Positions 16,063-33,570 of a DNA stretch of 64,000 nucleotides are shown piece after piece. Source of the DNA: Thermodesulfobacteriota bacterium (lineage in GTDB: Bacteria; Desulfobacterota_D; UBA1144; Nemesobacterales; UBA2774); contig OZ244197.1 of the NCBI GenBank assembly GCA_965216785.1, positions 1,728,001-1,792,000 on the forward strand. The letters run 5' to 3'. Every line of letters starts with the position of its first letter. Positions within the stretch are counted from its first letter, which is position 1. The translations under genes and the position numbers were made by a program. A model generated the notes under the pieces. The model worked only from the letters and a program-made list of their open reading frames with translations. It had not been told where the DNA came from and did not search any database.

Positions 16063-16078
16063 GGCAATTCTTATGCCA
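16063..16078 (-). promoter_or_regulatory. Sigma54 -24/-12 promoter for adh unit
   Basis: TGGCATA-AGAA-TTGCC. Confidence 0.7.
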
Positions 16079-16150
16079 CATGGGCAGCATTCATATGTAG
16101 TTGGATATTATGAACAATCTGAGGTGTAGGAAATCGGTTCTTTATGTTGT

Positions 16151-16167
16151 TGTAAGATTTTAGGACG
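16151..16167. promoter_or_regulatory. Putative enhancer (UAS) site
   Basis: TGTAAGATTTTAGGACG, 73 bp upstream of the adh sigma54 site. Confidence 0.5.
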
Positions 16168-16225
16168 GCTAGATCATCATGTACTTTATATTTTAAGTCG
16201 GGTTATTAGACAGTGCTGTAGTCGG

Positions 16226-17233
16226 TCAACTCTTGATACGCTCTTCTGAAATTTGATTCACACATTCACGGCCTTCTTCAAAATCTTTTATATTTGAAAG
16301 AGTCGTATCCGCGATTGCTTCAAGCGCTTCTCTTGTAAAGAAAGCCTGGTGCCCTGTGATAAGCACGTTCGGAAAGGTCAGTAGGCGCGCGAAGACGTCA
16401 TCCTGTATCACCTCGTTAGTTAAATCCTCAAAGAACAGTTCTTCCTCTTCCTCATAAACGTCCAGTCCGAGATAGCCTATCTTCCCAGACTTTAGAGCCT
16501 GAATGACCGCCTTTGTATCAATCACTGCTCCCCTGCTAGTATTTATAATCATTACTCCCGGTTTCATCTTATTAATAGCATCGTTGTCAATCATGTGGTG
16601 CGTATCGGGCGTAAGAGGACAGTGAAGGCTGATTATGTCGGATTCACTGAAAAGCTGGCCAAGAGAAGTATAGGTTACGCCCAGGGCTTCACACTCTTTG
16701 GCCGGATAGGGGTCGTATGCTAATATCTTACAGCCCAATGCCTGCAGTATTCTTGCTAGAGCGGTTCCAATCTTCCCCGTGCCTACGATGCCTATTGTTT
16801 TACCGCTCAGGTTATAACCCAATAGCCCTTCGAGTGAAAAATTACCGTCCCTGACTCTAGAGTAGGCGCGGTGGGTCTTTCTGATGAGAGAAAGAATGAG
16901 GGCTAGAGTATGCTCTGCTACGGCCTGAGGGGAATAAGAAGGTACTCTTACTACCGTTATGCCGAGCTTCGCCGCATCTGCAAGGTCTACATTGTTAAAG
17001 CCCGCGCAGCGAAGCGCTACAAGCTCCGTTCCTCCTTCTTTGATTACCTTAAGGACATAACCGTCCAATATATCGTTAACAAAAACACAGACTGCTTTGA
17101 ATCCCGAAGCAAGCACAGAGGTTTCTCTATTTAGCGGCGGTTCAAAAAAAACCAGCTCGTGATTATAAAATTTGTTTCCCGCCTCTAGGAATTCCCTGTC
17201 ATACGATTTAGTGCTGAATACAGCTACCTTCAT
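16226..17233 (-). CDS. ldhA: D-lactate dehydrogenase (D-2-hydroxyacid dehydrogenase)
   Basis: MKVAVFS, LRCAGFNNVD, YSPQAVAEH, GTGKIG, NTSRG, DVYEEE, ITGHQAF. Confidence 0.9.
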   Translation of the reverse strand: MKVAVFSTKSYDREFLEAGNKFYNHELVFFEPPLNRETSVLASGFKAVCVFVNDILDGYVLKVIKEGGTELVALRCAGFNNVDLADAAKLGITVVRVPSYSPQAVAEHTLALILSLIRKTHRAYSRVRDGNFSLEGLLGYNLSGKTIGIVGTGKIGTALARILQALGCKILAYDPYPAKECEALGVTYTSLGQLFSESDIISLHCPLTPDTHHMIDNDAINKMKPGVMIINTSRGAVIDTKAVIQALKSGKIGYLGLDVYEEEEELFFEDLTNEVIQDDVFARLLTFPNVLITGHQAFFTREALEAIADTTLSNIKDFEEGRECVNQISEERIKS

Positions 17234-17336
17234 GTGAATCACCCCGTTATTATAGAGAGTAAAGCCACCGCTTCTCTTAATCAAGACACTTACAGCAATA
17301 GCATTGCTGCATGATACCAGAAGACTGATTATTAAA

Positions 17337-17353
17337 TGTATGAAAATCTTACA
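17337..17353. promoter_or_regulatory. Putative enhancer (UAS) site
   Basis: TGTATGAAAATCTTACA, 61 bp upstream of the sigma54 site at 17414. Confidence 0.5.
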
Positions 17354-17413
17354 ACGGACAGCCTGGTTAGCTGTTTTATGGCTTCCTAACTCACATTATA
17401 AGCGTCTTAGGTA

Positions 17414-17429
17414 TGGTACAAATCTTGCT
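17414..17429 (+). promoter_or_regulatory. Sigma54 -24/-12 promoter for ppsA unit
   Basis: TGGTACA-AATC-TTGCT. Confidence 0.7.
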
Positions 17430-17528: not shown

Positions 17529-17951
17529 ATGAGAAATTTTGTTTTTGTCACTTTATTCGCTTTTACTTTCTTCTCTGTACTGGGAGTTCAACATACGTAT
17601 GCAGAGAAGGTTCATGTCGTTAGGCTCAATAAATCACATGGGATAGTCGATAAAGAAAGGCCCAATGAGCTCACGGCGTATTTAGTATCGGAAAACGGTA
17701 GCGGGGGAGTGATAGTGACGCCAGTTGAGAGTCCCAAGTTCGGAATTATCAGAACGATTTATGCGAAAGAGAAAAAGGAGCTTCCGGATATCGGGCATCC
17801 TGGCGGCATAAAATCAGGCATTGAGCTTCGTATAGTATTTGAAGACTCCATGGTCGATCTTCCTCCTGAGGCCTGGATCACGCTTAATATCTACCAGTCA
17901 GGCGCAACCGAGATATGTACATACAGTATGGGATCTATTGTATGCGGATAA
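17529..17951 (+). CDS. Secreted hypothetical protein
   Basis: Signal peptide ending TYA; GGGAGGG SD. Confidence 0.7.
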   Translation: MRNFVFVTLFAFTFFSVLGVQHTYAEKVHVVRLNKSHGIVDKERPNELTAYLVSENGSGGVIVTPVESPKFGIIRTIYAKEKKELPDIGHPGGIKSGIELRIVFEDSMVDLPPEAWITLNIYQSGATEICTYSMGSIVCG

Positions 17952-17984
17952 TCATTTCCTGCATAAGTGAGTAAGGAGGCCCCT

Positions 17985-20399
17985 TTGACGAAAGAATCAA
18001 AATATATTCTTTGGTTTAAAGATATCGGCATCGAGGATATCCCTCTTGTTGGCGGTAAGAATGCTTCGCTTGGTGAGATGTACAGGGAGCTTGCGGCAGA
18101 GGGTATAAAGGTCCCCAATGGTTTTGCCGTCACGGCTCACAGTTACAACGATATACTGAGCTCATCAGGAATTTTAAATGATCTGAAAGACGCGATGGAT
18201 GGGCTTGATAAGAACGATGTTGCCGATCTGGCCAGGCGCGGCAAGCACGCCCGCGATTTAATTCTGGGGGCAGGAATTCCAGATGATATTTGGCAGGTGA
18301 TAGGGACTGCGTACGATGAGCTTTGCAAGGAATACGGTGTTAAAACCGATGTTGCGGTAAGGTCCTCGGCCACAGCAGAAGACCTGCCCACCGCTTCATT
18401 CGCGGGTCAGCAGGAGACCTATCTCAACATAAGCGGTAAGAGCGCGCTCAGAGAAGCATGCCTGAAATGCTTTGCGTCCCTCTTTACCGACAGAGCCATC
18501 TCTTACCGTATTGACAACGGCTTTGATCACTTTAAAGTGGCGCTTTCCGTGGGCGTGCAAAAGATGGTGCGCTCGGACCTGGCGACGAGCGGAGTGATAT
18601 TCACACTGGACACCGATACGGGTTTCCGCGACGTAGTCCTGATCACAGCTTGTTACGGGCTTGGAGAAAACATAGTCCAGGGGACAGTTAATCCCGATGA
18701 GTATTACGTGTTTAAACCTACCTTCAGGAGTGGTCATAGGGCAATCATCAAAAAAAACCTAGGTCAGAAGAAGATAAAAATGGTCTATGGTATAGGCGAT
18801 TCAAAGATGCTGACCCGGAATGTGGAAGTGTCGGCGATTGATAGAAGGCGCTTTTGTGTTTCAGACGAAGACCTTTTAAAATTAGCCGGCTATGCAATTG
18901 CAATAGAAGATCATTATACAGAAAAGGCGGGCGAACCGAGACCTATGGATATTGAGTGGGCTAAGGACGGCATGACCGGGGAACTCTTTATAGTTCAGGC
19001 AAGGCCTGAGACCGTGCAGGCGTTAAAAGACAGGGACGTTTTGGAAACATATCGCCTGGACGAAAAAGGGGAGGTCCTTGCTTCGGGTAAGAGCGTTGGA
19101 GAAAAGATAGCGAGCGGTAAAGCAAGGCTAGTGCGCGACTCCGGGAGTCTTTCAATGGTAGAGCCCGGTGAGGTTATTGTTGCCAACACCACTACGCCCG
19201 ATTGGGAGCCTGTGATGAAAACGGCCTCGGCCATCGTAACTAACAGGGGAGGTAGGACTTGTCATGCGGCCATCGTGAGCCGGGAGCTCGGAATACCGGC
19301 TGTTGTGGGCGCGGAGAACGCTACTGAAAATATAGATGACGGAATGCCGGTTACGGTAAGCTGCGCTCAGGGAGAGAAGGGTTTGGTTTATGAGGGTGAG
19401 CTTCCTTTTCATGTTGATAGAGTCACTCTGACAGATCTAAAGCGACCGAAAACAAAGATAATGATGAACCTGGCAAACCCAGAGCTTGCTTTTTCACTGT
19501 CCATGGTGCCAAATGACGGCGTTGGGCTTGCGCGTGTGGAGTTTATAATCACAAGCTACATCAAGATTCATCCCATGGCTCTCTTATATCCGGAAAAAGT
19601 CACAGACCCTAAGGCAATGAATGAAATCTACTATCTGACCTACGGCTATAAAGATAAAAAGTCCTATTTCGTCGACAGACTATCAGAGGGAGTAGGCACC
19701 ATTGCCGCGGCGTTTTATCCAAAACCCGTAATAGTGCGTATGAGCGATTTCAAAACTAATGAGTACGCAAGCCTTGTGGGAGGTGAGTTCTTTGAGCCCG
19801 CGGAGGAAAACCCCATGATAGGTTTTCGCGGAGCTTCACGTTACTACGATGAAAAGTACCGTGAAGGATTTGCGCTCGAATGCGAGGCCATGAAAAGAGT
19901 GCGTGAGGATATGGGACTCACAAATCTTGTGATAATGATCCCGTTTTGCAGAAGGGTGGAAGAGGCTAAAAAGGTGCTGGACGAAATGGCTAAAAACGGT
20001 CTCGTAAGGGGCGAGAGGGAGCTTGAGGTTTACGTGATGTGCGAGATACCGAATAACGTTATCCTGATAGATGAGTTCAGCGAGCTCTTTGATGGGTTTT
20101 CCATAGGCTCAAACGACCTGACGCAGCTTACTCTGGGAGTTGACAGAGACTCTGAGCTAATTGCACACGACTTTGATGAAAGAGACCCGGGTGTTATTAA
20201 GATGATCTCCATGACCATCCAAGGCTCAAAGCGCAATCAGACCCACTGCGGCATTTGCGGGCAGGCCCCGAGTGATTATCCTGAATTTGCGGAGTTCCTG
20301 GTCCGGGAAGGGATTGAGTCAATCTCACTAAACCCTGACTCGGTTATGAAAACTACACTCAGGGTAATAGAAATTGAGGAAGAGCTAGGTAATTTATAA
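17985..20399 (+). CDS. ppsA: Phosphoenolpyruvate synthase
   Basis: VGGKNASLGEM, VRSSATAED, GGRTCHAAI phospho-His, FSIGSNDLTQ, CGQAPSD; TTG start after AAGGAGG preferred. Confidence 0.96.
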   Translation: MTKESKYILWFKDIGIEDIPLVGGKNASLGEMYRELAAEGIKVPNGFAVTAHSYNDILSSSGILNDLKDAMDGLDKNDVADLARRGKHARDLILGAGIPDDIWQVIGTAYDELCKEYGVKTDVAVRSSATAEDLPTASFAGQQETYLNISGKSALREACLKCFASLFTDRAISYRIDNGFDHFKVALSVGVQKMVRSDLATSGVIFTLDTDTGFRDVVLITACYGLGENIVQGTVNPDEYYVFKPTFRSGHRAIIKKNLGQKKIKMVYGIGDSKMLTRNVEVSAIDRRRFCVSDEDLLKLAGYAIAIEDHYTEKAGEPRPMDIEWAKDGMTGELFIVQARPETVQALKDRDVLETYRLDEKGEVLASGKSVGEKIASGKARLVRDSGSLSMVEPGEVIVANTTTPDWEPVMKTASAIVTNRGGRTCHAAIVSRELGIPAVVGAENATENIDDGMPVTVSCAQGEKGLVYEGELPFHVDRVTLTDLKRPKTKIMMNLANPELAFSLSMVPNDGVGLARVEFIITSYIKIHPMALLYPEKVTDPKAMNEIYYLTYGYKDKKSYFVDRLSEGVGTIAAAFYPKPVIVRMSDFKTNEYASLVGGEFFEPAEENPMIGFRGASRYYDEKYREGFALECEAMKRVREDMGLTNLVIMIPFCRRVEEAKKVLDEMAKNGLVRGERELEVYVMCEIPNNVILIDEFSELFDGFSIGSNDLTQLTLGVDRDSELIAHDFDERDPGVIKMISMTIQGSKRNQTHCGICGQAPSDYPEFAEFLVREGIESISLNPDSVMKTTLRVIEIEEELGNL

Positions 20400-20470
20400 A
20401 AAACTAAAAAAGCAGTGACAGACCGTAAATGTTTTAAAATTGGGAATAATAATTTAAGGAGGGCTTTCTG

Positions 20471-20818
20471 ATGGTAAAAAATTATCCTGAGTCTTACAGG
20501 TCTTTACTGGATATGCAGAAAAAACTTTCAGCCGAGCTGCCGGGTCCAATGAAAAGCTTTGGTCGTCTGCACCAAGATGTGATAACAGATGCCGCACTGG
20601 ATACGAAAGCCAAGGAGCTCATTGCATTAGGTATTGGGATAGCAGTCAGATGCGATGGCTGTATCTCATATCACATTCATGATGCACTTGTGGCGGGAGC
20701 AACGCGAGAGGAAATAATAGAGACAATCGGGGTTGCAATACTCATGGGCGGCGGGCCTTCAATGGTTTATGGATGCGAGGCACTCGAAGCGTTGGACCAA
20801 TTCGATAAAGAGAATTAA
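20471..20818 (+). CDS. Carboxymuconolactone decarboxylase / AhpD-family protein
   Basis: KELIALGI..RCDGCI.YH...A...GAT.EEI, MGGGP. Confidence 0.88.
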   Translation: MVKNYPESYRSLLDMQKKLSAELPGPMKSFGRLHQDVITDAALDTKAKELIALGIGIAVRCDGCISYHIHDALVAGATREEIIETIGVAILMGGGPSMVYGCEALEALDQFDKEN

Positions 20819-20850
20819 ATTCTCGGTTTCTATTTTATAATCTCTTAATA

Positions 20851-22020
20851 ATGAATGAAATATCTCTGGTTCTCCTAATTATCGGGGCTTTGTTACTTAC
20901 AGGATATTCCGCACACATAGTTGGTAAACGTACGCATGTACCCAGAGTGACTCTTTTACTATTATTAGGTCTTATCTCAGGTCCCCACTTACTGGATTTA
21001 ATTCCCAAAACAATTGAAGAATGGTTCCCCTTTATAGCTCATATGGCTCTTGCCATGGTCGGCTTTTTATTAGGAGAAAGTTTCTACGGTAAGAATTTGA
21101 AGTCTACCGGAAGGGACGTACTTTGGATTTCTATAGCGCAAACGGTGGTGGTCTCACTCTTAGTTTTTACTATTCTCTATATATCGGGAGCAGGGCTGGC
21201 ATTATCGCTTATACTTGCGGGGATTGCGCCCGCTACCGCTCCTGCGGCGACCATCGACCTGGTACAAGAGAGTAGGGCGAAGGGCCCGCTTTCCGATACC
21301 TTGCTCGGAGTTGTGGCGCTCGATGATGCGTGGGGAATTATTTTATTCAGCGTAATGCTTATACTGGCAGAGGGATCTGTTAACGGATCAATATCAGAAA
21401 TGCATTTCCTTCACGGATTATGGGAAGTTTTTGGTGCTGTAGTTTTGGGAGCAGTTTTGGGAGTTCCGATGGCTTGGCTTACGGGCAGGGTCAGGACGGG
21501 AGAGCCTACACTGCTTGAAGCCGCCGGTTTTGTATTTGTCTGCGGAGGGCTGGCGCTTTACCTGAACGTTTCATTTTTGCTGAGCTCTATGGTATTGGGC
21601 GCCGTCGTTGCCAATAAAGCCAAGCACCATACTAAACCATTTCGGGATATAAAGGGAATAAGCGAACCGTTCCTTGCACTGTTCTTTTTCTTGGCTGGTT
21701 ATGAGTTTGAGCTGGAAAGCTTTTATGTTATCGGCGGCGTTACAGTTACCTACATTATTACGAGATTAATAGGGAAGGTTCTTGGAGGCCTGGCCGGTGG
21801 TAAAATGTCAAAAGCACCTCAGGTAATCACACGCGGTATAGGATGGTGTTTAGTGCCTCAAGCAGGAGTTGCCGTAGGAATGGCTTTACTCGTGGTTGAA
21901 AGATTGCCTGCTCTTGGAATCAAGATTCTGCCGGTTGTAATAGCGAGCACGATTATATTTGAGATTATCGGCCCGATACTTACTTTATGGCAGCTCAGAA
22001 AAGCGGGTGAAGTTGAGTAA
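20851..22020 (+). CDS. Cation:proton antiporter (CPA2)
   Basis: About 12 TM helices, ATAPAAT, ALDDA, PQAGVA. Confidence 0.88.
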   Translation: MNEISLVLLIIGALLLTGYSAHIVGKRTHVPRVTLLLLLGLISGPHLLDLIPKTIEEWFPFIAHMALAMVGFLLGESFYGKNLKSTGRDVLWISIAQTVVVSLLVFTILYISGAGLALSLILAGIAPATAPAATIDLVQESRAKGPLSDTLLGVVALDDAWGIILFSVMLILAEGSVNGSISEMHFLHGLWEVFGAVVLGAVLGVPMAWLTGRVRTGEPTLLEAAGFVFVCGGLALYLNVSFLLSSMVLGAVVANKAKHHTKPFRDIKGISEPFLALFFFLAGYEFELESFYVIGGVTVTYIITRLIGKVLGGLAGGKMSKAPQVITRGIGWCLVPQAGVAVGMALLVVERLPALGIKILPVVIASTIIFEIIGPILTLWQLRKAGEVE

Positions 22021-22145
22021 CGGCGAATCATTAATACTGGTATTATCGGGTTTTATCAACAATACTAAATGTATGAAACGAACTATGAGTACATCATATA
22101 TCAACCATTTGTCTTAAATAAGAAAATACACAGGAGTATTATTTA

Positions 22146-23051
22146 ATGCGGATTAAAAAAATTGTGTGGGCAACGGACGGGTCGAATGAAGCGCAAGAAG
22201 CGCTCAAATATGCGGTTTATCTGGCTAAGGAATATTCCGCAGAGATTTTGGGTGTATATGTAAGCACGAAGAAAGTTAAAAGTATCTCCTCAGAATTCTA
22301 TAGGTTGATGCAGGAGCAATTTAGCGATCTGGCCGAAACCGAAGATAAAGAATTTGAAGCTGATTTTGCCTCCACACAGGCAAGTATGAAATCCCAGGGC
22401 GTTCGTTTTGCCGGTACAGTTCTTAAAGGGGATGCAGCTTTAAAGATTGTAAATTTTATACACAAAGAAAACGCAGACCTTGTAGTGATCGGGACCCGGG
22501 GGCACGGGCTTATTGATAAAATGCTCATTGGAAGCACTACGCTTAAAGTCCTGAAAAAGTCTAGCATACCTGTCTTTGCCTTTAAAAAGAGTGAAAGAAA
22601 AAGAGCTAGTATTAAAAATATTCTCGTTCCGGTGGATGTGTTTCAACATAAGGGTCATGCGCTTGAGTATGCCGTCGACTTAGCCACTGTTCTGAACGCG
22701 CAAATACACGCGGTATATTCCATTCGGCTTGCTCGCCACATTTATGCTGTGCCGAGCATTCTGAACGAGCTCATTAAACACTCTAAAGCGGAGTTAATAA
22801 AAAGGGTAGAAGAAATAAAACTAAAACACAGGCTCCGGGGCAAAGATGCTGGTGAGCTCAGGATTAGCACACAAGTGATCCATGGCGTAAACCCGGCTAT
22901 AGCCATTACTGACTATGCTTCTACAAAGAATATTGATCTAATTGTTATAAACATGAACTCAAGAAGCGGAATTAAGAAATTGATTCTGGGCAGCACTACG
23001 GAAAAGATTGTTCGCTCTTCTCATTGCTCGACTCTCGTCGTAAGACCGTAG
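22146..23051 (+). CDS. Tandem universal stress protein
   Basis: Two USP domains: WATDGS..GTRG...LIGSTT and ILVPVD..LGSTTEKIVR. Confidence 0.92.
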   Translation: MRIKKIVWATDGSNEAQEALKYAVYLAKEYSAEILGVYVSTKKVKSISSEFYRLMQEQFSDLAETEDKEFEADFASTQASMKSQGVRFAGTVLKGDAALKIVNFIHKENADLVVIGTRGHGLIDKMLIGSTTLKVLKKSSIPVFAFKKSERKRASIKNILVPVDVFQHKGHALEYAVDLATVLNAQIHAVYSIRLARHIYAVPSILNELIKHSKAELIKRVEEIKLKHRLRGKDAGELRISTQVIHGVNPAIAITDYASTKNIDLIVINMNSRSGIKKLILGSTTEKIVRSSHCSTLVVRP

Positions 23052-23080: not shown

Positions 23081-23097
23081 TGTATCGGATTCTTACA
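23081..23097. promoter_or_regulatory. Putative enhancer (UAS) site
   Basis: TGTATCGGATTCTTACA, 74 bp upstream of the sigma54 site at 23171. Confidence 0.5.
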
Positions 23098-23170: not shown

Positions 23171-23186
23171 CGGCACGCAGATTGCA
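23171..23186 (+). promoter_or_regulatory. Sigma54 -24/-12 promoter for CBS gene
   Basis: CGGCACG-CAGA-TTGCA. Confidence 0.75.
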
Positions 23187-23237: not shown

Positions 23238-23678
23238 ATGAGTTTAGGAAATATGTGTAGAAAAGATGTTGTTACCGTGGGCCCGGAAACGATGGTAAGT
23301 GATGTGACAAAGCTCATGGAAGAGAAAAACATCGGAAGTGTGATTGTTAAAAATATTATAGAGGGCGCTGACAGAGAAAAATTTGGCATCGTAACGGACA
23401 GGGATATAGCGCTCAGGGTTATTAATAATAACCTTGATCCCGCAAACACCCCGATTGACGATGTGATGACTCAAAATCTGGTATTGACCCTTAGAGAGGA
23501 CATGGGGCTTTTTGAAGCTCTCGAGCTGGTAAGAAAGAGTGCTATCAGAAGATTCCCGATCGTAGACATCGACGGTAACTTAAAAGGAATTCTCACACTC
23601 GATGATATAATCAGGCTATTAGGTAAAGAGATGGCCGATGTAGCTAATATTATAGAAAATGAGGGGCCGCTTCTGTAA
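23238..23678 (+). CDS. CBS-pair domain protein
   Basis: GIVTDRDI, VMT, IRRFPIVD, GILTLDDI. Confidence 0.92.
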   Translation: MSLGNMCRKDVVTVGPETMVSDVTKLMEEKNIGSVIVKNIIEGADREKFGIVTDRDIALRVINNNLDPANTPIDDVMTQNLVLTLREDMGLFEALELVRKSAIRRFPIVDIDGNLKGILTLDDIIRLLGKEMADVANIIENEGPLL

Positions 23679-23704: not shown

Positions 23705-24895
23705 TCATACTATTTGGAACTGTCCTTTCAGTACTTTTTCCCACATCTCAGGCATTTCGTCGAGCATCTTTTCGGTAAGGAGTCCTATAGCATCTTCGTC
23801 GTAGTCTTTACCTTTAAGCTTTATATCGAGTGCCATGGGCTCGTTTATGGGTTTTCCTATTTGGGACACAATATAACAATATGCCTCTTCCGCATAGCCT
23901 TTTTGAATGATCAGTCGGCACAGCTCATTAGCGAATAAGTTGTAGATTTTTCCTACATGGCTAACGGGGTTTTTACCGGCCACTGCTTCGAGCGTCATGG
24001 GCCTGTATGGTGTAATCAATCCGTTTGCCCTGTTTCCCCTGCCTACCTGACCGTCATCTCCCCCCTCGGCGCTTGTTCCCGACACAGTGAGGTATACGCT
24101 TTCACTAGCGTAGTCATCGGCTGCGTTGATTTTTAGCTCTGTCCCTTCTCGGATACAATCCTGCGCTTCCAGGAAATCCTTAATTTCATTAATTTTCTGT
24201 ATATAATCAGTTATCGATATTACGTATTTATCAACGATCGCGATTGCAACGGTAAGTGTTATTTTCTCTTTATATCTTACTCCCATAACCTTTATATCTT
24301 CGCCTATGTAGGGATAGGCCCTTTTGGTTTCGGGATTATTTAGCAATTTCTCGGCCTTTAGTACAGTTTCCTCGAGAGTGTCGTGAGGATAAAATCCCGT
24401 TCCTATGGACGTATCGTTTGACAGGGGGATATCTCCTTTGCCAAAACGCTCGAACAGCTCTATTAGGTCTTTGCTCCCGGATCTGATCTTAACGTCGATT
24501 TTAATATGATCTTCTACGTCAAGGTGGCGGACATTTTTACTTATGGATTTCCTGACCGCATCTCTAGCTATTTCGTCTATGGGTAGGGCTATTCCTCTCT
24601 TCTCTTTTACTGCTCTTCCCGCAATGGTTAGCTCTATGGGCTTTACTATTCTGCCGCCGTTGTATGAGGGCTTTGACGCTCCTCCGACAAGAAGCGCTTT
24701 ATCGACATTGTGGTGCATGATTGAGCCGAATTCTTCGAGATAGTATTTACTTATAGCGATCGAAGTATCTTCGGCAATGAGATCACATATCGTATCGGGA
24801 TGTCCAAGTCCCTTCCTTTCGACAATCTCTATATCTCGGTCCTGAGCGAGCGTGTCGGTGAGTGGACCTACGAATATATTGTTATTCATATTCAT
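23705..24895 (-). CDS. mat: Archaeal-type S-adenosylmethionine synthetase
   Basis: [54 protein letters not shown]. Confidence 0.92.
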
Positions 24896-24904
24896 GAGTC
24901 ATAT

Positions 24905-24920
24905 TGCAAGACATATACCA
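24905..24920 (-). promoter_or_regulatory. Sigma54 -24/-12 promoter for mat
   Basis: TGGTATA-TGTC-TTGCA. Confidence 0.7.
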
Positions 24921-25003
24921 GTAAGAAATAGTAACACAAGCGGAATTAAGAGCGCTCTGGCGATATATCTTTTGTGAGAGGAAAAATGAGAGAAATTGTC
25001 AGA

Positions 25004-25020
25004 TGTCAGATTTATAGACG
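25004..25020. promoter_or_regulatory. Putative enhancer (UAS) site in the mat/pcm divergent region
   Basis: TGTCAGATTTATAGACG; an extra half-site TGTAAGATT at 25101. Confidence 0.45.
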
Positions 25021-25141: not shown

Positions 25142-25157
25142 TGGCATCAATATTGCT
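25142..25157 (+). promoter_or_regulatory. Sigma54 -24/-12 promoter for pcm operon
   Basis: TGGCATC-AATA-TTGCT. Confidence 0.75.
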
Positions 25158-25920: not shown

Positions 25921-25975
25921 GAGAGGGTTGTAGCGTAGAGACAGGGGGATAAAAACACAATTCGGAGGTACTAAA

Positions 25976-26455
25976 ATGAGTATCTTGAAGAGGTTAAAAA
26001 AATATCTGGATGAGAATAATATCAAATATATAGTGATAGCTCACTCCCCTTCCCATACGGGACAGGAGCTTGCCGAGACTGTGCACATTTCCGGCAAGGA
26101 GATAGCAAAAACAGTTATTCTTAAAACAGAGGATCAATACGTGATGGCGGTGCTGCCGGCTTCACGGATGATAGACGTTGAGTATCTCGAAGAATATATA
26201 GGAGCTCAGGGGCTCAGGCTTGCGGAAGAGAGTGAATTTAATGAATTATTCCCTGACTGTGAGCTTGGAGCGATGCCTCCATTCGGCAATTTATACGGGA
26301 TACCCGTTTACTCGGCCTCAGCCTTATCCGATGATGAGGAAATCGTTTTCAACGCCGGCACTCATACGGACGCCATTAGAATGAGCTACAAAGATTACGC
26401 GGATTTGGTTAAGCCTACGGTGATTCATTTTTCAGAACCGCTTTACACGCAGTAA
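25976..26455 (+). CDS. YbaK/EbsC-family aminoacyl-tRNA deacylase
   Basis: IAKTVIL (catalytic Lys), FPDCELGAMPPFG, FNAGTH. Confidence 0.9.
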   Translation: MSILKRLKKYLDENNIKYIVIAHSPSHTGQELAETVHISGKEIAKTVILKTEDQYVMAVLPASRMIDVEYLEEYIGAQGLRLAEESEFNELFPDCELGAMPPFGNLYGIPVYSASALSDDEEIVFNAGTHTDAIRMSYKDYADLVKPTVIHFSEPLYTQ

Positions 26456-26558
26456 TAAGCTGTGGTCATCAAGGCGTGAATTGGGTGCAGGGGCGGATAC
26501 GTGATTGATGGCCGATATGCATGGCGCTTGACTAAATAGATCGAAGAGAGGGAAAATC

Positions 26559-27758
26559 ATGGAATTTAACAACAGAATAAAGAGCCTTTCAGATTATGAG
26601 TATCAAAATAACCCGGTAACTTCCCTATACCTTAAATTGGGACCTCAGGATAGACAGAACCTAAAGTATAAATTGACTGTAAAGAACCTGGTAAGAGATA
26701 CAAGGGAGGCTCTCGGCAAACGAGGGTTAAGTAAGTCCGCATTAGACTCCATAGATTCTGATTTTTCTAAAATTACGGGATACGTGGAGAAAACAGCCGA
26801 TATCTCCGAATGCCGGGGTTTAGCTATATTTTCATCATCAGGTGAAGAATATTGGGAGGTATTTAAGCTCCCCGAAGTGTACCGAAACCAGCTAGTAGTG
26901 GACAGAACGCCTCTACTTGGCCAGCTGATAAAAATAAACGAGGAATACAGTGATATCGTCACGGTATTCGTGGATAGAAAAAAGGCAAGGATTTTCAGAC
27001 TCGACCCCGAAGGTTCGAATGAGATTTTGGATTATTTCTATCCGGCGGCATCGAGGACCAGGAAATTCAGCTCACCGGAAGGCACATTCAAACAGAGGGT
27101 TTCACAGGGAGAGGGAACGGGCAGTATGACACAGAGTTACGGGGAGCACAGCTTTCAAAGAACAATTGAAAACGAGGTGCATCAGCACTATAAGTACACC
27201 TCAGATAAGGTATTTGAGTATTATAAAGAACATAAATTCAAGTGGCTTATCGTAGGAGGTACGGAAAAGAATATCTCAGAGTTCACTGAGCATCTGCATA
27301 CGTATCTCGGGGACATTTTGGCGGGCACAATTACTGCAGACGTGGATAAAATAAAGCCTTATCAGGTTATGGATGCAGCATTGGAAGCGCTGCAGTCAAA
27401 GAAAATAGAGAGGCTACAAAGATTACTTGCCGAATTTGAGGAGAAAAAAGGCAAGGGATTAACCGTAGAAGGTGTTGATTCTACATTAAGCGCTCTATCA
27501 GCAGGTCAATTAAGAGTTCTCTTTGTAGAAGAAGATTTCAACATCCCGGGATTTGTGTGTCCTGAGACAGGGGTGCTGTTAACAGAAGAAAACAAAGAGC
27601 TTTGCCCGGAAGACGCGGAGCCCAAATACGTTGTCGATGTAGTGGACCTTTCCATTGAGGAAGCCTTCAGGCAAAAAGCGGAGATAGAGATTTTGCGCAG
27701 TGAAGAATCTAAGAAGAAAATAAGCGGGATGGCGGGAATTCTGAGGTTTAAACAATAG
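26559..27758 (+). CDS. Bacterial archaeo-eukaryotic release factor-like (baeRF/Balon-like) protein
   Basis: VTSLYL, GLAIF, VDRKKARIF, LIVGG, eRF1 domain 3 with CPET..CPED and GMAGILRF; no GGQ or NIKS. Confidence 0.82.
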   Translation: MEFNNRIKSLSDYEYQNNPVTSLYLKLGPQDRQNLKYKLTVKNLVRDTREALGKRGLSKSALDSIDSDFSKITGYVEKTADISECRGLAIFSSSGEEYWEVFKLPEVYRNQLVVDRTPLLGQLIKINEEYSDIVTVFVDRKKARIFRLDPEGSNEILDYFYPAASRTRKFSSPEGTFKQRVSQGEGTGSMTQSYGEHSFQRTIENEVHQHYKYTSDKVFEYYKEHKFKWLIVGGTEKNISEFTEHLHTYLGDILAGTITADVDKIKPYQVMDAALEALQSKKIERLQRLLAEFEEKKGKGLTVEGVDSTLSALSAGQLRVLFVEEDFNIPGFVCPETGVLLTEENKELCPEDAEPKYVVDVVDLSIEEAFRQKAEIEILRSEESKKKISGMAGILRFKQ

Positions 27759-27823
27759 GAAGGGTGATAACTCTTTAACCATCAAAACATCCCGAAACGT
27801 GAAGTAAGCGGGGTTTCGCGAAA

Positions 27824-28492
27824 ATGATGTTAAGAGCATACATCAGATTAGTTGTTTACATTATACTGGTAAGCGTAATTCTCTTTTTTTCAGCCGGGCG
27901 TATAGACTGGCTTGCTGCTTGGGTATTTCTGGTTATATATACGGCGATTATTATTATAGGCGTTACTTTTGTCGATCCAGAACTGTTAAAAGAACGAAGC
28001 AAGATAGGGCCAGGGGCTAAGAGGTGGGACATTGTAATAGCCAGCGTCGCAGTCGTCTTTTTGTTCCCGGCTACGTTTCTTGTTGCGGGTCTGGACGCCG
28101 GTCGTTACCATTGGTCGCCTCCCTTCCCGGTATGGCTTCAGATCGCTGCTTTTCTCGGATTCCTGGCAGGAAGCGCTCTGCAGTCGTGGGCAATAATTAC
28201 AAACAAGTTCTACTCGTCAGTCGTTCGGATTCAAACCGATAGGGGCCATTACGTTATCACAGACGGGCCGTACAGATACGTGCGCCATCCCGGTTACACA
28301 GGAGTTATCGTGACATCATTTGCTATCCCGCTGATGCTGGGATCGCTATGGGCTCTTGTTCCCGCGCTGATAGGGGACTGCATTCTCGTTATCCGCACCT
28401 TACTAGAAGACAATACTCTAAAGAGTGAGCTTGCAGGATATACGGAATACGCCGCTAAGACCCATTACCGTCTAATACCGGGTATCTGGTAG
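27824..28492 (+). CDS. Isoprenylcysteine carboxyl methyltransferase-family membrane protein
   Basis: TM helices, ITDGPYRYVRHPGY, RT..ED..L, YRLIPGIW. Confidence 0.88.
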   Translation: MMLRAYIRLVVYIILVSVILFFSAGRIDWLAAWVFLVIYTAIIIIGVTFVDPELLKERSKIGPGAKRWDIVIASVAVVFLFPATFLVAGLDAGRYHWSPPFPVWLQIAAFLGFLAGSALQSWAIITNKFYSSVVRIQTDRGHYVITDGPYRYVRHPGYTGVIVTSFAIPLMLGSLWALVPALIGDCILVIRTLLEDNTLKSELAGYTEYAAKTHYRLIPGIW

Positions 28493-28517
28493 CAGACATT
28501 TAAAATACTTACCCTAA

Positions 28518-29639
28518 TCAGGATTGTCCTACGGTTATGCTCTGACGGAATCTAAATAGCGCCGCGCTAAAGTAGAGCGATCCGATAAGGATCAAAATTA
28601 AAAAATCACCCCAGACCACTTCTACGCCCGCGTCGCGGAACAGCACGGCTTGGGCGTAGTTTACAAAATGTGTGGATGGTGAAAAGTACATAACATACCG
28701 CAGTACCGCAGGCATGCTGTCCATCGGGGTATAGACCCCCGAGAGGAGCATCATTACCAAAAAGACCGGCAGTGCGAGAAGGCCGAACTGCGGCATGGAG
28801 CGTGCGATAGTCGCAAGTAATATCCCGAGCGAAGTGACCGAGAATAGGAAGGCTATAGTGCCCGCGATAAACAAGGGGATTGAGCCCGCGATATGGACTT
28901 GAAGCAGTCCTTGTACGACTAAATATAATGAGGCAATGGCCGCAGCTACAATAACTAGCCCGTTTGCCCATATCTTCGCTGCCATTATGTCAAAAGGCCT
29001 TAGCGGCATTGCTAAAAGGTGCTCTAGAGTGCCGTGCTCACGCTCCCTTATCACAGCGGCGCCGGTAAGGATTATTGTCAGCAGCGTCATGTTGTTTATG
29101 ATTTCCATTATGCTCAGAAACCATACTGATTCAAGGTTCGGATTGAACTTAGATCTGATTACTATATTTGCCGCTTGCCCGGGGTCGTTGTAACTCATGA
29201 AGTCCCCTATCTCGTCCGCTATGATGCTTTGTATATACCCGGCGCCTCTGCCCGCTATACTCATTGCGGTCGCGTCCACGTTTATCTGAATTTCAGGACT
29301 CTTTTGTGCAAGCAGGTCCTCCTGGAAGTCCGGGGGGATATCTATTACAAAACTGTACTTTCCGTAATCCATAGCGCGGTCGATCTCGCTCACGGAAATC
29401 AGAGTCGGCGGCTTAAAATACGGCTCGAGCAAGGCGTCGTGTATCCGGCTCGAGAGGGTCGATCTGTCTTCATCCACTATGCCGATGGCGGCGTTCTCAA
29501 CGTCGGTTCCCGACTGGGAGGCCTCGTATACGCCAAACGATAGGGAATAGACGATCAGGAAAACCAGAAATAGATCGTAGCGCAAGCTGAATAGCTCTTT
29601 TATGCCCAGTCTGAAAATGTTATCTATTCTCTGTAGCAT
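28518..29639 (-). CDS. yhhJ: ABC-2 permease (YhhJ-like)
   Basis: GIKEL, VDEDRS, REREHGTLEHLL. Confidence 0.85.
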   Translation of the reverse strand: MLQRIDNIFRLGIKELFSLRYDLFLVFLIVYSLSFGVYEASQSGTDVENAAIGIVDEDRSTLSSRIHDALLEPYFKPPTLISVSEIDRAMDYGKYSFVIDIPPDFQEDLLAQKSPEIQINVDATAMSIAGRGAGYIQSIIADEIGDFMSYNDPGQAANIVIRSKFNPNLESVWFLSIMEIINNMTLLTIILTGAAVIREREHGTLEHLLAMPLRPFDIMAAKIWANGLVIVAAAIASLYLVVQGLLQVHIAGSIPLFIAGTIAFLFSVTSLGILLATIARSMPQFGLLALPVFLVMMLLSGVYTPMDSMPAVLRYVMYFSPSTHFVNYAQAVLFRDAGVEVVWGDFLILILIGSLYFSAALFRFRQSITVGQS

Positions 29640-29641
29640 AG

Positions 29642-32398
29642 TTAGCTCTCCTGAGCCTTTAATAGTAATAGGCCGAATGTTAGGTATGCGAATATAATGA
29701 TTACAAGAGCTAAATAGTTAATCGCGAGATCTCCAAAGTCGAGTGCTTTTGTAAAAGTTCCCATGCTGATGAGCTGAAAATATCCGTACGGGAATATAAG
29801 ACCCATTGCCTTTGCGCCCCCTGAAAGAGAGGATACCGGCGTAAAGTAGCCCGAGAAGTTAATTGCCGGGGTAACCGTGATAATAGCAGTTGCGAATATG
29901 GCGGCAATCTGTGTCCTTACCAAGGTGGAAACCATCATACCAAAGCCTGTAGTAGCAACTACATAGAAAAGAGCGCCCAAGGTGAGCGCGGCGAAGCTTC
30001 CCTTAACCGGGACTTTAAACAAAAAGAGGGATAGCAGCACAAGAGTGGCGAAATTAATCATAGCAAGCAGCACGTACGGGGCCTGCTTGCCCAGTAGAAA
30101 TTCGAGTTTTGTAACGGGGGTAGCATAGAAATTGGTAATCGAGCCTAGCTCTTTCTCGCGCACTACGCCTAGGGCCGTCATCATTGCCGGAATAAAAACG
30201 AGAAGTATCATGATCGTACCCGGTACCATTGCGAATACGCTTTTAAAATCCTGGTTGTAGCGAAAGCGCGTCTGTAAGCTGACGGGCAGGGTAGAGAGCC
30301 CCCGTCCATGATCTTTCATGGCTTGCTCTTCAAGGTAGCTTCGGTGAACGCCCTCTACATACCCGCGGCTCGTTTCAGCCCTATAGGGCATAGCGCCGTC
30401 GAGCCACACGCCCACTTCCGGCGTAGCCCCTCTCTTCAGGTCTTTCCCGAAGTCGGGGGGCATCTCAATCGCAAGTCTGAGCTCGCCGCTCCTGAGCCTA
30501 TGCTCAAGCTCTCTCTGGTCATAAATTGGAGGCGTCTCTTCAAAGTAGCGGGAGCCGGAAAAATTCTCGAGGTAGCGCCTGCTTTCGGGTGTGTTATCTC
30601 TGTCGAGCACGGCATAGGGGAGGTTTTCTACATCGAAAGTAATGCCGTATCCGAACACTATCATTAATATGATGGGGCCGAGCATAGCGAATGCCAGACG
30701 GATGGGGTCGCGCTTGATCTCCATTGCTTCGCGGCGCGCGTATGCCCACATACGCCCGAAATTCAGGATGCCGGGTCTTTGTTCTTTTCGGTCGTCGGTG
30801 TGGTGAGACGATATTTTCTCAGTTGTCTCTTGGTCGGTATTCTGTAAAATATCACCTTCGGCCTCTTCAAGATAGGCTATAAACGTATCTTCCAGGTTCT
30901 CGGAGGATTTACTCTCAATTAGCTCCCGGGGGCTTCCCTGCGCCAGCACTTTGCCCGCGTGCATTAATGATATGCGGTCGCACCGCTCCCCCTCATTCAT
31001 GAAATGTGTGGATATAAATATAGTTACGCCATCCTCTCTTGAAAGCTTAATCAAAAGCTCCCAGAAACCGTCTCTCGCAATCGGGTCGACACCCGAAGTA
31101 GGCTCGTCCAGAATCAGCATCCGGGGGGCGTGGATAAGAGCGACCGCGAGAGATAGCCGCTGCCTAATACCGAGCGGCAGCTTTTCGGGAAGCTCATTTT
31201 CAGATCCTTCAAGGCCGAAACGATCGATCATCTCCGATACCCGCTCGGGGATATATTCCCTGGGAAGATGAAAAAGGCGGGCGTGAAGTTCGAGGTTCTG
31301 CTTCACGGTGAGCTCGTTATACAGGGAAAAAGACTGAGACATATAACCGACCTGTTTTCTTATCTCCAAATCTCTTGCGTCTACGCTTTTCCCAAACAGA
31401 TAAGCTTCACCTTCAGATACGGGCAAAAGCCCGGTGAGCATTTTCATGGTCGTCGTTTTCCCGCAGCCGTTAGAGCCAAGGAAACCGAATATCTCGCCTT
31501 GCTCGATACGGAAGCTTACTTCGTCTACAGCGGTAAAGCTGCCAAAACGCTTGGTGAGATTCCTGGCTTCAATGGCTGTCTCGCCGACGTGATTTTGGTA
31601 CGGAGTAATCTCTAATTTTTTATAATACTTGCTCTCATCCTCGGGCATGAGATGTATAAACGCCTCTTCAAGGCTACTGGAGCCGTTTTGCTGTTTCAGC
31701 TGCTCTGGACTTCCGGTTTCGAGCACCCTTCCGTCGTTCATGGCGATGAGCCAGTCAAACCCCTCTGCCTCTTCCATATAGGCTGTAGCTATAATTACGC
31801 TCATTCCCTCACGCCTGTGACGGATGCGCTCGATTAGCTCCCAGAACTGACGTCGTGACAGGGGGTCGACTCCTGTTGTGGGCTCGTCTAGGATCAGGAG
31901 CGTAGGGTCGTGAATAAGAGCGCAGCAAAGACCGAGTTTCTGCTTCATACCCCCGGAGAGCTTGCCCGCGGGACGCGTGGAAAAAGGAGCGAGCCCGGTG
32001 CCTGTGAGAAGTTCCTTGATTCTCCATTCACGCTCTTTAGCAGACTGTCCGTAAAGGCGGCCGAAAAAATCCACATTATCGTAGACCGAGAGCGTCGGGT
32101 ACAGGTTCTTTCCGAGGCCCTGGGGCATGTAGGCTATGCCCGGGCAAATATCGGCTCTGTTCGAGGACACGGACATGTCCGACCCCAGTACCTCCACCTT
32201 ACCTCTTTGGATCTTGCGAACGCCGGATATAAGCGAGAGCATTGTGGACTTGCCCACACCGTCAGGGCCGATAAGCCCCGCCATGCATCCTGAGGGTATC
32301 TCTATACTTACATTGTCCAAAGCTTTGGTTTTGCCGTAGATTTGCGAGACGGCGGTGAGGCGCGCTACAGGTGCAGTCACATAAGAGCGTTCGCTCAT
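29642..32398 (-). CDS. rbbA: Ribosome-associated ATPase / ABC transporter RbbA
   Basis: Two ABC domains ([30 protein letters not shown]) fused to a permease. Confidence 0.92.
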
Positions 32399-32399
32399 T

Positions 32400-33389
32400 T
32401 TAATATCCGGTGTGCCGATCTAAATTTTCAGGCCACCGAGCTTTCGGGTCGACTTTAACGAATGCCATGCCCGGGAGCCCGGGTTTTATCCAGACCTCGT
32501 ATTTTTCTACAGTTTCGGGCGCTATGCTGACCTTCACGCGGAAAACCAGCTTTTGGCGCTCCTTGGCGGTTTCAACTTCTTTTGGTGTGAACTGAGCTTT
32601 GGAGGCGACGAAGGACACCCTGGCGGGAATTGCGAGCTCGGGAGCCGCGTCAAGCACTATCCTGCTCTCAGCGCCAATTGCCAGTATGCCCGCATCTTCC
32701 ATAGGCAGGAATACGCTCATATAAACATCCGAAAGGTCGATAATAGTGAGCACTTTTCCTCCGGCTGAGATAACTTCGCCGGGCTCGGCGAGACGGTACT
32801 GGACGCGGCCGCCGAAGGGGGTTTTGAGGACGCTGTCTCTTATGTCTACTTCGAGCCTTTCAGTTTGGGCCTTCGCAGCGTCAATCGCGGCTTCCGCATT
32901 TGCAACGTCAGCCCTTGCCGCGTCGCACATGGCTTTTGCCACTTCGTATTTTGCTCTATCCTGATCGAGTTTTTGTAGCGAGATGTTTCCGTTTTCATAA
33001 AGGCGTTTTGACCGGAGTAAATCTCTTTTTGTTAACTGGCATTCACTTTCACGCTGCGCGACTACCGCGAGCGCTGTACTGCGCTGTTTCTCCGCGCTGA
33101 TTTCAGATGCTTTAGCCTCCCTCAGCTGAGCTTCGAGAGATTCGGTATCCATCCGTGCTACAACCTGACCGGCTTGTACGTCGTCACCTTCATCTACCAA
33201 AATCTCAGAAACTCTCCCATAAAACTTTGTGGCAATGTCGACCTCGGTTGCTTCAAGGCGGCCATTCCCAGACGCGATACCCACCAGGGGCGGTACTCTA
33301 TAGTACTCCCACCATACGTAGGAGCCCGCAATCGCCGTAATAATCACCAGCGCCCCAATCACCGTAAAACTTAACTTGCTCTTAGTCAT
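32400..33389 (-). CDS. yhiI: HlyD-family membrane fusion protein (YhiI-like)
   Basis: [38 protein letters not shown]. Confidence 0.88.
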
Positions 33390-33554
33390 AGGTCCTACTC
33401 TTTACCTACACTCCGAATCATCCTTTAAGTGTAAGCTCTGATATCAATCATAAAGCAATATTTTACGCATATAAATATAGTCGTAGATATTTTACCCGCC
33501 TGCCAGCACATATGGTTAACAATAATACTTTATCTATAAAACACGCTTTTTTAT

Positions 33555-33570
33555 CGCAAACAGGATGCCA
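33555..33570 (-). promoter_or_regulatory. Sigma54 -24/-12 promoter for yhiI-rbbA-yhhJ
   Basis: TGGCATC-CTGT-TTGCG. Confidence 0.7.

Follow-up and report, generated by a model that had tools for sequence, protein, structure and literature searches.

A candidate low-oxygen sigma-54 regulon in a Dadabacteria-like bacterium

Introduction

Why should six promoters of the sigma-54 type lie within 18 kb of one bacterial genome, and which activator, answering to which signal, might control them? The locus belongs to a host of Dadabacteria-like lineage and was studied in a window of 64 kb, the whole stretch of DNA that was analysed. An earlier note on this DNA had read it as a dormancy-like island, analogous to the mycobacterial DosR regulon and driven throughout by sigma-54 and an activator encoded elsewhere.

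Results

The six 16-nt sites lie between positions 16063 and 33570 of the window (Table 1), all of them intergenic and each facing the next gene at a distance of 11–167 nt. The pattern YGGYAY-N5-TTGC fits these six and nothing else in the 64 kb, and 0.013 sites would be expected by chance within the 1,691 intergenic nt of the block. Genome-wide the pattern has 51 intergenic matches at spacer 5, 49 of them facing a gene, compared with 1–8 at each of the other spacers (2–4 and 6–9) and 2.6 ± 1.7 (maximum 7) in 30 dinucleotide shuffles. The genome also encodes rpoN, which scores over the curated cut-off, and 15 full sigma-54 activators. The earlier note, which had claimed six sigma-54 promoters from the GG-N10-GC spacing, is confirmed on this point, and its gene labels stand on family and profile matches. 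Its remark that the flanks are free of sites holds for the strict pattern, but a matrix trained on the genome finds weaker candidates there (scores of 10–13 versus 15–19). The density of sites is not unique to the block; another 18 kb, at 73–91 kb of the genome, contains seven.

Table 1. Positions of promoters, predicted enhancers and genes of the block and of the candidate regulator (window coordinates unless marked "genome").
Feature	Position	Strand	Remarks
adh, Zn-dependent alcohol dehydrogenase	14951..16006	-	Pfam ADH_N/ADH_zinc_N
Sigma-54 (-24/-12) promoter of adh	16063..16078	-	score 18.0; site of at least 10 before the ortholog in 14/16 relative loci
Enhancer palindrome of adh	16151..16167	-	centre about -107, score 12.7
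D-lactate/2-hydroxyacid dehydrogenase	16226..17233	-	divergent from ppsA unit; profile matches
Enhancer palindrome of orf140-ppsA unit	17337..17353	+	centre about -95, score 15.2
Sigma-54 promoter of orf140-ppsA-cmd-nhaP-(usp)	17414..17429	+	pattern and matrix
orf140 (no family), PEP synthase, CMD/AhpD-like protein, Na+/H+ exchanger, tandem-domain USP	17529..23051	+	family matches
Enhancer palindrome of cbs	23081..23097	+	centre about -108, score 8.8 here
Sigma-54 promoter of cbs	23171..23186	+	pattern, matrix and ortholog loci
cbs, stand-alone CBS-pair protein	23238..23678	+	family match
mat, archaeal-type SAM synthetase	23705..24895	-	PF01941, NF003366 over cut-off
Sigma-54 promoter of mat	24905..24920	-	kept in only 2/8 ortholog loci
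Enhancer common to divergent mat/pcm promoters	24997..25020	.	weak 17-mer 25004-25020, score 5.6; perfect extra half-site 24997-25003
Sigma-54 promoter of pcm-ybaK-baeRF10-icmt	25142..25157	+	present before 7/8 pcm orthologs
pcm (isoaspartyl methyltransferase), YbaK-type tRNA-editing protein, baeRF10, ICMT-family membrane methyltransferase	25207..28492	+	
baeRF10, aeRF1/Balon-like protein	26559-27758	+	inside pcm operon
yhiI-rbbA-yhhJ ABC exporter operon	28518..33389	-	RbbA equivalog over cut-off
Sigma-54 promoter of yhiI	33555..33570	-	pattern match
gnat-sensor-activator operon	genome 2,723,618-2,727,199	minus	about 1 Mb from window; GNAT, PAS-PAS kinase, activator
NtrC-type activator gene	genome 2,723,618-2,724,973		

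The extent of the orf140-ppsA operon was inferred from strand and spacing, and the start of the D-lactate/2-hydroxyacid dehydrogenase gene was picked from the sequence (an ATG behind GGGGTG); the matrix scan found no sigma-54 promoter of this gene's own. The first ATG of mat coincides approximately with the predicted +1.

Five of the six promoters, those of adh, the ppsA unit, cbs, mat and pcm, are preceded at about 80–200 nt by a 17-bp palindrome, TGTC(A/C)GA-N3-TC(T)GACA, with mat and pcm having one weak site in common. When only the six window promoters were searched for a motif, the result was no better than in the controls; the palindrome was learned de novo from 20 upstream regions of other genera, where it scored 110.7 versus 58–72 in 15 shuffles. 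A match of at least 10 precedes 14 of 56 sigma-54 sites of the genome, compared with 1.7% of 605 background upstream regions, mostly at -83 to -111, and an extra half-site follows on the promoter side at 7 of the 21 sites listed (background 1.3%). Scores are modest at cbs and at mat/pcm. The palindrome is conserved in position at orthologous promoters despite rearrangement: it scores at least 11 at -99 to -128 in 10 of 16 adh loci, 11.6–19.8 in all nine cbs loci (six of which belonged to the training set), and 10.8–21.5 at -154 to -232 before six of seven pcm orthologs, while that of the orf140-ppsA unit is conserved in one relative (G002) and before ppsA in another (G012). It is likely the binding site of one NtrC-type activator. 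At yhiI no enhancer match was found at -60 to -200 (score 0.2), nor in a same-genus relative; in two other relatives, however, operons with the enhancer do include yhiI-rbbA-yhhJ. The yhiI promoter is of the sigma-54 type in sequence but may answer to another activator.

Elsewhere in the genome, the palindrome and a sigma-54 promoter precede ccoI-ccoNO-ccoP-ccoG (cbb3 oxidase), a cytochrome c-nosZ unit whose nosZ is Sec-dependent and of clade II, a haem-synthesis divergon, hsp20, and several USP and CBS genes; a cation P-type ATPase and an AAA_33 protein also belong to the predicted regulon. An NnrS gene lies, like nosZ, within or beside motif-controlled units. Conservation is strongest for the respiratory members, namely cbb3 oxidase, nosZ and haem synthesis. 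The GC content of the block is not distinct, and its gene order is shuffled outside the genus. The block is likely one cluster of a genome-wide low-oxygen regulon and not a self-contained island.

An activator encoded elsewhere, the other half of the original proposal, finds support in an operon about 1 Mb away, which encodes a GNAT protein, a FixL-like sensor and an NtrC-type activator with receiver Asp57, GAFTGA and a Fis-type HTH, and which is itself preceded by the palindrome and a sigma-54 promoter. Among the 15 activators, only this one is flanked on both sides by high-scoring motif promoters (15.4 and 18.0). In relatives, the operon adjoins cbb3-operon genes in 17 of 20 loci and is preceded by motif and promoter (score of at least 10) in 13 of 20; the ccoI promoters in view all score at least 16 (12/12). 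In four Dadabacteria loci (L121, L136, L138 and L139) the pair stands amid usp, cbs, adh, pcm, ybaK and hsp20 genes with motif-bearing promoters. Of the 25 genomes that encode the sensor, 20 show the strict motif-plus-promoter pattern, versus 1 of the 16 that do not encode it, a contrast to be read with the caveat that many sensor-negative genomes are poor in sigma-54 sites and that kin are not independent; a reversed control gave none in 41 genomes. Activators with the recognition helix SRDTLYRK have the motif nearby (at least 12, from 4 kb before to 0.5 kb after the activator) in 8/8 Dadabacteria and 8/12 Acidobacteriota cases, compared with 4/56 for other helices, four loci whose helix did not align being omitted. 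Its own motif, its adjacency to cbb3 genes and the acidobacterial helix–motif link make the gnat operon the likely regulator. The acidobacterial kinases beside the same-helix activator have no haem-PAS match, so that this activator clade is not tied to a FixL-like sensor.

The first PAS domain of the sensor matches the haem-PAS structures of FixL and DosP (E ~1e-13). His98 and Arg118 (H+20), which by analogy with FixL and from the alignment to 1dp6/8js5 we take to be the proximal haem ligand and the distal residue, are present in 23/23 and 22/23 aligned loci, respectively. Thr is retained at H+4 of the H-box, but the acidic residue (Glu/Asp) at H+1 is absent, its place being taken by His in all 31 Dadabacteria rows (in some cases a genome may be represented twice); the N-box position carries an invariant Asp. 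In Agp1, His at this position eliminated kinase activity (PMC8292422), and the sensor may therefore not itself donate the phosphate. It could work chiefly as a phosphatase under O2 control, with phosphate coming from another kinase or acetyl phosphate, although the N-box Asp might restore a general base.

The baeRF10 gene bears on the term dormancy. Its predicted structure (mean pLDDT 61) has an aeRF1-like three-domain fold without GGQ or NIKS, and in this fold as well as in its stress-operon context it resembles Balon, Rv2629 and Msmeg1130 as described in PMC10901736. The top fold match is Msmeg1130 (E 8e-16, TM 0.52), yet eRF1 follows at 2e-15, and the search does not separate Balon from eRF1. 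Unlike Balon, the protein falls below the cut-offs of three NCBIfam models (78/330, 44/480 and 36/320 bits), and no HP decoding-centre motif is conserved in its alignment. In 7 of 12 relative loci it has no sigma-54 promoter within 400 nt, nor does it there follow pcm or orf140. On these sequence comparisons baeRF10 is a distant Balon relative only. Because it is distant and often lacks such a promoter, "low-oxygen" describes the regulon better than "dormancy"; the hypoxia theme and the DosR-like gene content remain.

Discussion

With a probability of about 0.75, we propose that the palindrome of the five promoters binds one NtrC-type activator, which would be switched on at low oxygen by the FixL-type haem-PAS sensor beside the cbb3 operon. 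The activator of the gnat operon would bind the palindrome, and the PAS domain of the sensor would bind haem and O2. In its oxygenated form the sensor would hold the activator unphosphorylated; upon loss of O2, the phosphorylated activator would accumulate, loop to the sigma-54 polymerase and open the palindrome promoters, with positive feedback through the promoter of its own operon. The window genes would then help the cell to balance redox, save energy, repair proteins and slow translation when oxygen is limiting.

The protein on the palindrome could instead be another sigma-54 activator, or several of them with similar helices, the FixL-like operon being only a target. Fourteen other activators are encoded in the genome, palindromes of the TGT-N11-ACA type are common to the NtrC-type class, and in one relative (G036, 93% complete) four strict motif-promoter sites occur, one of them before a cbs ortholog, but no ortholog of the pair; around its motif sites lie multihaem cytochromes and another HAMP-kinase/activator pair, which has the helix SPVTIWRK and bears the motif in its own promoter. 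However, none of the 14 has strong motif promoters adjoining, and both the helix–motif link across phyla and the presence pattern of the sensor speak for the gnat operon, which leaves this account a small but appreciable chance. It is less probable still that the same activator answers to NO or CO, redox state or conditions of N2O respiration instead of O2. Haem-PAS domains bind NO and CO too, nosZ and the NnrS gene would fit such signals, and the acidobacterial partners, without haem PAS, flank multihaem cytochromes and molybdopterin reductases; the distal Arg, which in FixL holds bound O2, is nevertheless almost always kept, and the cbb3 oxidase is the most conserved target.

A PAS-HisKA_3 kinase and a LuxR/NarL-type regulator (window 33914–35843), adjacent and divergent to yhiI and with homologs also near baeRF10 in G007, would be natural candidates if the block were controlled as by mycobacterial DosS/DosR. 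We consider this very unlikely: sigma-54 promoters depend on activators of the AAA+ class, to which LuxR proteins do not belong, the PAS of the kinase lacks the haem His, and a LuxR-type palindrome at 36054 lies before the downstream polysaccharide cluster and not at the six promoters. The least probable account is that unrelated sigma-54 promoters cluster here by chance; groups of 4–7 sites do occur elsewhere in the genome and yhiI lacks the motif, but a common motif, kept in position at rearranged orthologous promoters, links the other five.

The general idea of a sigma-54 hypoxia regulon is already published: PMC11841059 describes a Myxococcus xanthus regulon for oxygen limitation that is run by sigma-54 and an NtrC-type protein and includes CBS, USP and cbb3 genes. 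NmpRSTU and the system predicted here both have an NtrC-type activator, sigma-54 promoters, a haem-based sensor and autoregulation, and both target, here by motif prediction, CBS and USP genes, a haem-synthesis gene and a P-type ATPase with cbb3 oxidase. In Myxococcus, NmpU senses through a protoglobin in a four-protein relay and NmpR binds GCGCA-N5-TGCGC (PMC11841059). In contrast, our 92%-complete genome gave no protoglobin match and has a two-gene FixL-type haem-PAS/activator pair plus GNAT, a 17-bp TGTCAGA-N3-TCTGACA-type box, and nosZ among the predicted targets; the Myxococcus box is absent from 14–37 kb of the window and has one intergenic occurrence genome-wide at no more than one mismatch. 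The proposed system would resemble NmpRSTU in its working and differ from it in its predicted sensor and its motif.

The rhizobial FixL-FixJ-FixK cascade likewise has cbb3 and nos genes as targets. Like FixL, the sensor has a haem-PAS with proximal His and distal Arg before a HisKA-type kinase core (1dp6, 8js5), but it reaches 181 of the 850 bits required by the NCBIfam FixL model and has His at H+1; its partner is a sigma-54 AAA+ activator in place of the LuxR-type FixJ, and no FixK/FNR tier was found. DosR, too, is a LuxR-type regulator, whereas the promoters here are of the sigma-54 type and the adjacent LuxR pair, without the haem His, likely has its box elsewhere. In gene content, the DosR regulon and the Burkholderia cenocepacia lxa locus, as described in PMC3721108, resemble our system in clustered USPs, Hsp20/alpha-crystallin, a cation-transporting ATPase, alcohol dehydrogenase and an ABC exporter with a low-oxygen theme; of the DosR gene list (in part after PMC3721108), USPs, CBS, Hsp20, cation ATPase, AAA_33 protein and an aeRF1-like factor were found here. 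The lxa locus has an FNR/Anr-like TGA-N6-TCA motif (PMC3721108), but neither this box nor TTGAT-N4-ATCAA was found in our region, and no CRP/FNR HTH scored over the cut-off in the 92%-complete genome.

The closest precedent for the H-box is Deinococcus radiodurans DrBphP, which, as reported in PMC8292422 and PMC3510030, lacks kinase activity and acts as a phosphatase. Both proteins have His at H+1 and have lost the paired N-box Asn; DrBphP differs in being a light sensor with Glu at H+4 and His in the N-box (PMC8292422), where our sensor has Thr and an invariant Asp. The invariant His makes the sensor a candidate for a second phosphatase-only sensor, or for a His-Asp swap that keeps kinase activity. 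We entertain, as a tentative and rather unlikely extension, that Dadabacteria, in the absence of FNR/FixK, have wired a FixL-type haem sensor directly to a sigma-54 activator as master switch of cbb3 respiration, clade II N2O reduction and DosR-like survival, the sensor being a phosphatase gated by O2 and not a kinase (it would be a pseudo-kinase by its His at H+1) and the input coming from the co-transcribed GNAT or acetyl phosphate.

The analysis puts forward, for this uncultivated lineage, a candidate switch for oxygen, the DNA site it would use and the promoters it would control, that of a clade II nitrous-oxide reductase among them. The system would be another case in which one low-oxygen gene set (USP, CBS, Hsp20, cbb3) stands under different regulators: DosR, FNR/FixK, NmpR and, in the system proposed here, a FixL-type sensor paired with an NtrC-type activator.

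Sigma-54 promoters and their upstream palindrome

The six promoters are real. The six GG-N10-GC 16-mers that the earlier note had reported lie where it placed them, all intergenic and each facing the next gene, and they alone match the strict pattern YGGYAY-N5-TTGC within the 64-kb window. Across the 3.12-Mb single-contig genome, the same pattern has 51 intergenic matches, 49 of them facing a gene, versus 1-8 matches at other spacer lengths. By comparison, 30 shuffles gave 2.6 +/- 1.7 matches, with 0.013 expected in the intergenic DNA of the island. The genome encodes rpoN and, counting the complete ones of 20 proteins that match the profile, 15 full sigma-54 activators.

The density of six sites within 18 kb is high, yet another locus of the genome (L022; see table) has 7 sigma-54 sites. 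At three of these, near two other activators, the palindrome is of another kind (TGTAAA-N5-TTTACA-like), and one site precedes a sigma-70-family gene. Several genes of this family follow a sigma-54 promoter either immediately or with one gene in between, which suggests sigma cascades. The first ATG of mat falls approximately at the predicted +1 (the leader is 3 nt in the relative G002 and normal in the relative G009), and the mat mRNA may be leaderless.

A de novo motif search with the six window promoters only, which is confounded by the spacer common to mat and pcm, performed no better than control sets. The same kind of search on 20 upstream regions of other genera returned the palindrome TGTC(A/C)(G/T)A-N3-T(C/A)(T/G)GACA (score 110.7 versus 58-72 for shuffles). 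With the resulting matrix, for which no sequence from the present genome was used, adh reaches 12.7 (-107), the ppsA unit 15.2 (-95), and cbs 8.8 (-108); the value is 5.6 for the site that mat has in common with pcm and 0.2 for yhiI. An additional, perfect half-site accompanies the mat/pcm enhancer, as is the case for 7 of 21 listed sites versus 1.3% of background, and the promoters of pcm orthologs carry the motif at 10.8-21.5 in six of seven cases. Genome-wide, scores of at least 10 occur at 14 of 56 sigma-54 sites versus 1.7% of 605 other upstream regions. The yhiI promoter is without the motif here, in G002 and in G018; in G003 and G028, yhiI-rbbA-yhhJ lies within motif-bearing operons. 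No FNR, CRP, NmpR, or LuxR-type box was found at the six promoters, except for a loosely overlapping match at the ppsA enhancer. With 2 mismatches allowed, matches to the IHF consensus are too loose to be informative; the genome has three HU/IHF-family genes.

Coordinates of the features discussed, in the window, in the whole contig (genome), or in relatives
Feature	Sequence	Coordinates	Strand	Observation
Di-haem cytochrome c peroxidase gene	window	13484-14557	-	394 nt downstream of adh
mat leader region	window	24881-24920	-	
Kinase-LuxR block	window	33914-38358		PAS-HisKA_3 kinase, LuxR regulator, single receiver, UpxY antiterminator, polysaccharide export gene
Palindrome TGTAGG-N7-CCTACA	window	36054		
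Sigma-54 cluster L022	genome	73-91 kb		
Sigma-70-family genes	genome	73,501; 331,802; 565,793; 1,389,563		
Second stress cluster (L217)	genome	2,362-2,373 kb		AAA_33 protein, three USPs, CBS, Hsp20, TrkA channel, another adh, CHAD
gnat-sensor-activator operon	genome	2,723,618-2,727,199		motif-bearing promoter, score 18.0
gnat operon leader	genome	2,727,150-2,727,225	-	also very short
Repeated sigma-54-like 16-mer	relative	G032:C1:425423-428202		11 identical copies, ~279-nt spacing; tandem repeat
Split activator gene	relative	G033:C30:14030-15191		two frames, through either a sequencing error or a pseudogene; likewise in L128 (G013)

Island genes and a predicted wider regulon

Pfam and NCBIfam confirm the genes of the island: adh, a D-lactate-type dehydrogenase, PEP synthase, a CMD protein, a Na+/H+ exchanger, a tandem USP, the CBS pair, an archaeal-type SAM synthetase, an isoaspartyl methyltransferase, a YbaK-type editor, the baeRF10 protein, an ICMT-type methyltransferase, and yhiI-rbbA-yhhJ. 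Gene order is conserved within the genus and shuffled beyond it, and the sigma-54 sites move with the genes. A site is kept upstream of the orthologs of adh at 14 of 16 loci, of cbs at 9/9, of pcm at 7/8, and of mat at only 2/8; for ppsA, it is clear in two and weak in two of the four loci with upstream DNA (two of six are unscorable). A horizontally acquired island was rejected, as the composition is not distinct, and the window contains no tRNA border.

According to a relaxed joint scan for motif plus sigma-54 site, combined with gene annotation, motif-bearing promoters precede ccoI-ccoNO-ccoP-ccoG-dsbD and cytochrome c-nosZ, the nosZ product being over the cut-off of the Sec-dependent model. 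The motif also precedes a protoporphyrinogen oxidase/radical-SAM divergon, usp with a cation P-type ATPase, a second usp, two more CBS genes, hsp20, several unknown proteins and, weakly, pta-ackA. The second stress cluster has motif-bearing promoters as well and is conserved in G007, G013, and G022. Because such promoters are spread genome-wide, including this cluster, the window is one part of a larger predicted regulon. The di-haem cytochrome c peroxidase downstream of adh may be a further member, since its ortholog sits in a motif-controlled unit of G028 (L121). Beyond the island, the palindrome at 36054 points to the LuxR pair as a likely regulator of the polysaccharide cluster.

A candidate regulator

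The gnat-sensor-activator operon, whose sensor is a PAS-PAS kinase and whose NtrC-type activator is encoded at genome 2,723,618-2,724,973, likely supplies the regulator of the motif promoters. It adjoins the nos and cbb3 clusters, and among the 15 activators, strong motif promoters flank this one only. The first PAS domain of the sensor matches the haem-PAS domains of FixL and DosP. Among 23 aligned loci of the 25 given, His98 is present in 23 and Arg118 in 22; they align with the haem ligand and the distal arginine of FixL, respectively. Of 20 loci from relatives, 17 have cbb3-operon genes next to the operon, and in 13 the operon carries the motif together with the promoter; each of the 12 ccoI promoters in view scores at least 16. 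At L121, L136, L138, and L139, it lies among usp, cbs, adh, pcm, ybaK, and hsp20 genes; the gene types of the window are therefore physically tied to it. The closest named records of the activator (64-78% identity) are from Ca. Dadabacteria and related MAGs, which marks the host as Dadabacteria-like. The gnat product has weak matches only, to assorted acetyltransferases. No CRP/FNR regulator over the cut-off and no protoglobin was found in the genome, which is 92% complete.

Of 25 sensor-positive genomes, 20 have the strict composite of motif and promoter, versus 1 of 16 sensor-negative genomes and none for the reversed control. Four of the five sensor-positive genomes without the composite show the motif by matrix; several sensor-negative genomes say little, because they have almost no sigma-54 sites. 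The motif lies close to activators whose recognition helix is SRDTLYRK at 8/8 Dadabacteria and 8/12 acidobacterial loci versus 4/56 for other helices (Fisher p 2.6e-5, which is overstated as kin are not independent; four loci without an aligned helix were left out). Against this sensor-activator pair as the regulator, G036 has four strict motif-promoter sites and no ortholog of the pair (best match 43%). The sites lie around genes for multihaem cytochromes and for another pair, a HAMP kinase and an activator, and the promoter of this other pair carries the motif as well. The sensor-activator pair is either missing in the G036 assembly, or the box is read there by a different activator. In G033, the ortholog is split and there is no strict site, and acidobacterial kinases beside the homologous activator gave no haem-PAS match.

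At L247-L248 of G036, a large multihaem cytochrome/MtrC-like cluster with hemA has many motif-bearing sigma-54 promoters around the HAMP kinase and activator, and is a candidate extracellular electron-transfer regulon. At L140-L154 (Acidobacteriota), the homologous activator and an H+1-His kinase lie beside multihaem cytochromes, MtrB porins, and molybdopterin reductases; the same palindrome is present, with few clear sigma-54 sites.

Relation to dormancy and to known systems

The earlier note had called the island dormancy-like. In favor of this label, the baeRF10 protein has a predicted aeRF1-like fold whose top match is Msmeg1130/Balon, with eRF1 close behind, and it is without GGQ and NIKS motifs. 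Against it, the protein falls below the Balon-family cut-offs and has no conserved equivalent of the HP motif described for Balon (PMC10901736). A PDB sequence search gave one weak eRF1 match. In four relatives, the baeRF10 gene follows a pcm or orf140 promoter, and in G028 a motif-bearing promoter of its own, whereas seven other relatives have no nearby sigma-54 site. A hibernation role is plausible.

The nearest system is NmpRSTU of M. xanthus, which has a similar target list but differs from the pair in its protoglobin relay and GCGCA-N5-TGCGC box (PMC11841059). FixLJ-FixK shares the sensor domain, and DosR and lxa share gene content (PMC3721108). The pair and its predicted regulon fit none of these four systems as a family member. 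A Poribacteria record (L158) has a protoglobin kinase adjoining an NtrC-type activator with a motif-like site, an NmpU-like architecture. A literature search over mostly open-access papers found no description of the pair or the regulon in Dadabacteria.

The kinase core of the sensor is odd. Its H-box is AHHMGTP: all 31 Dadabacteria rows carry His in position H+1 and Thr in position H+4, and the paired N-box Asn is replaced by Asp (Asp412 in the sensor). The seven other kinases of this genome with a matched H-box have Glu or Asp at H+1. Kinase activity requires an acidic residue at H+1, and phosphatase activity requires Thr/Asn at H+4 (PMC3510030). His at H+1 is reported to be very rare; it is found in the phosphatase-only DrBphP, and it inactivated Agp1 (PMC8292422). 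The sensor may therefore be an O2-gated phosphatase, or a His-Asp pair may stand in for the usual Glu-Asn pair. Under both readings, the output would be activation at low oxygen if, as we infer, the sensor follows the polarity of FixL.
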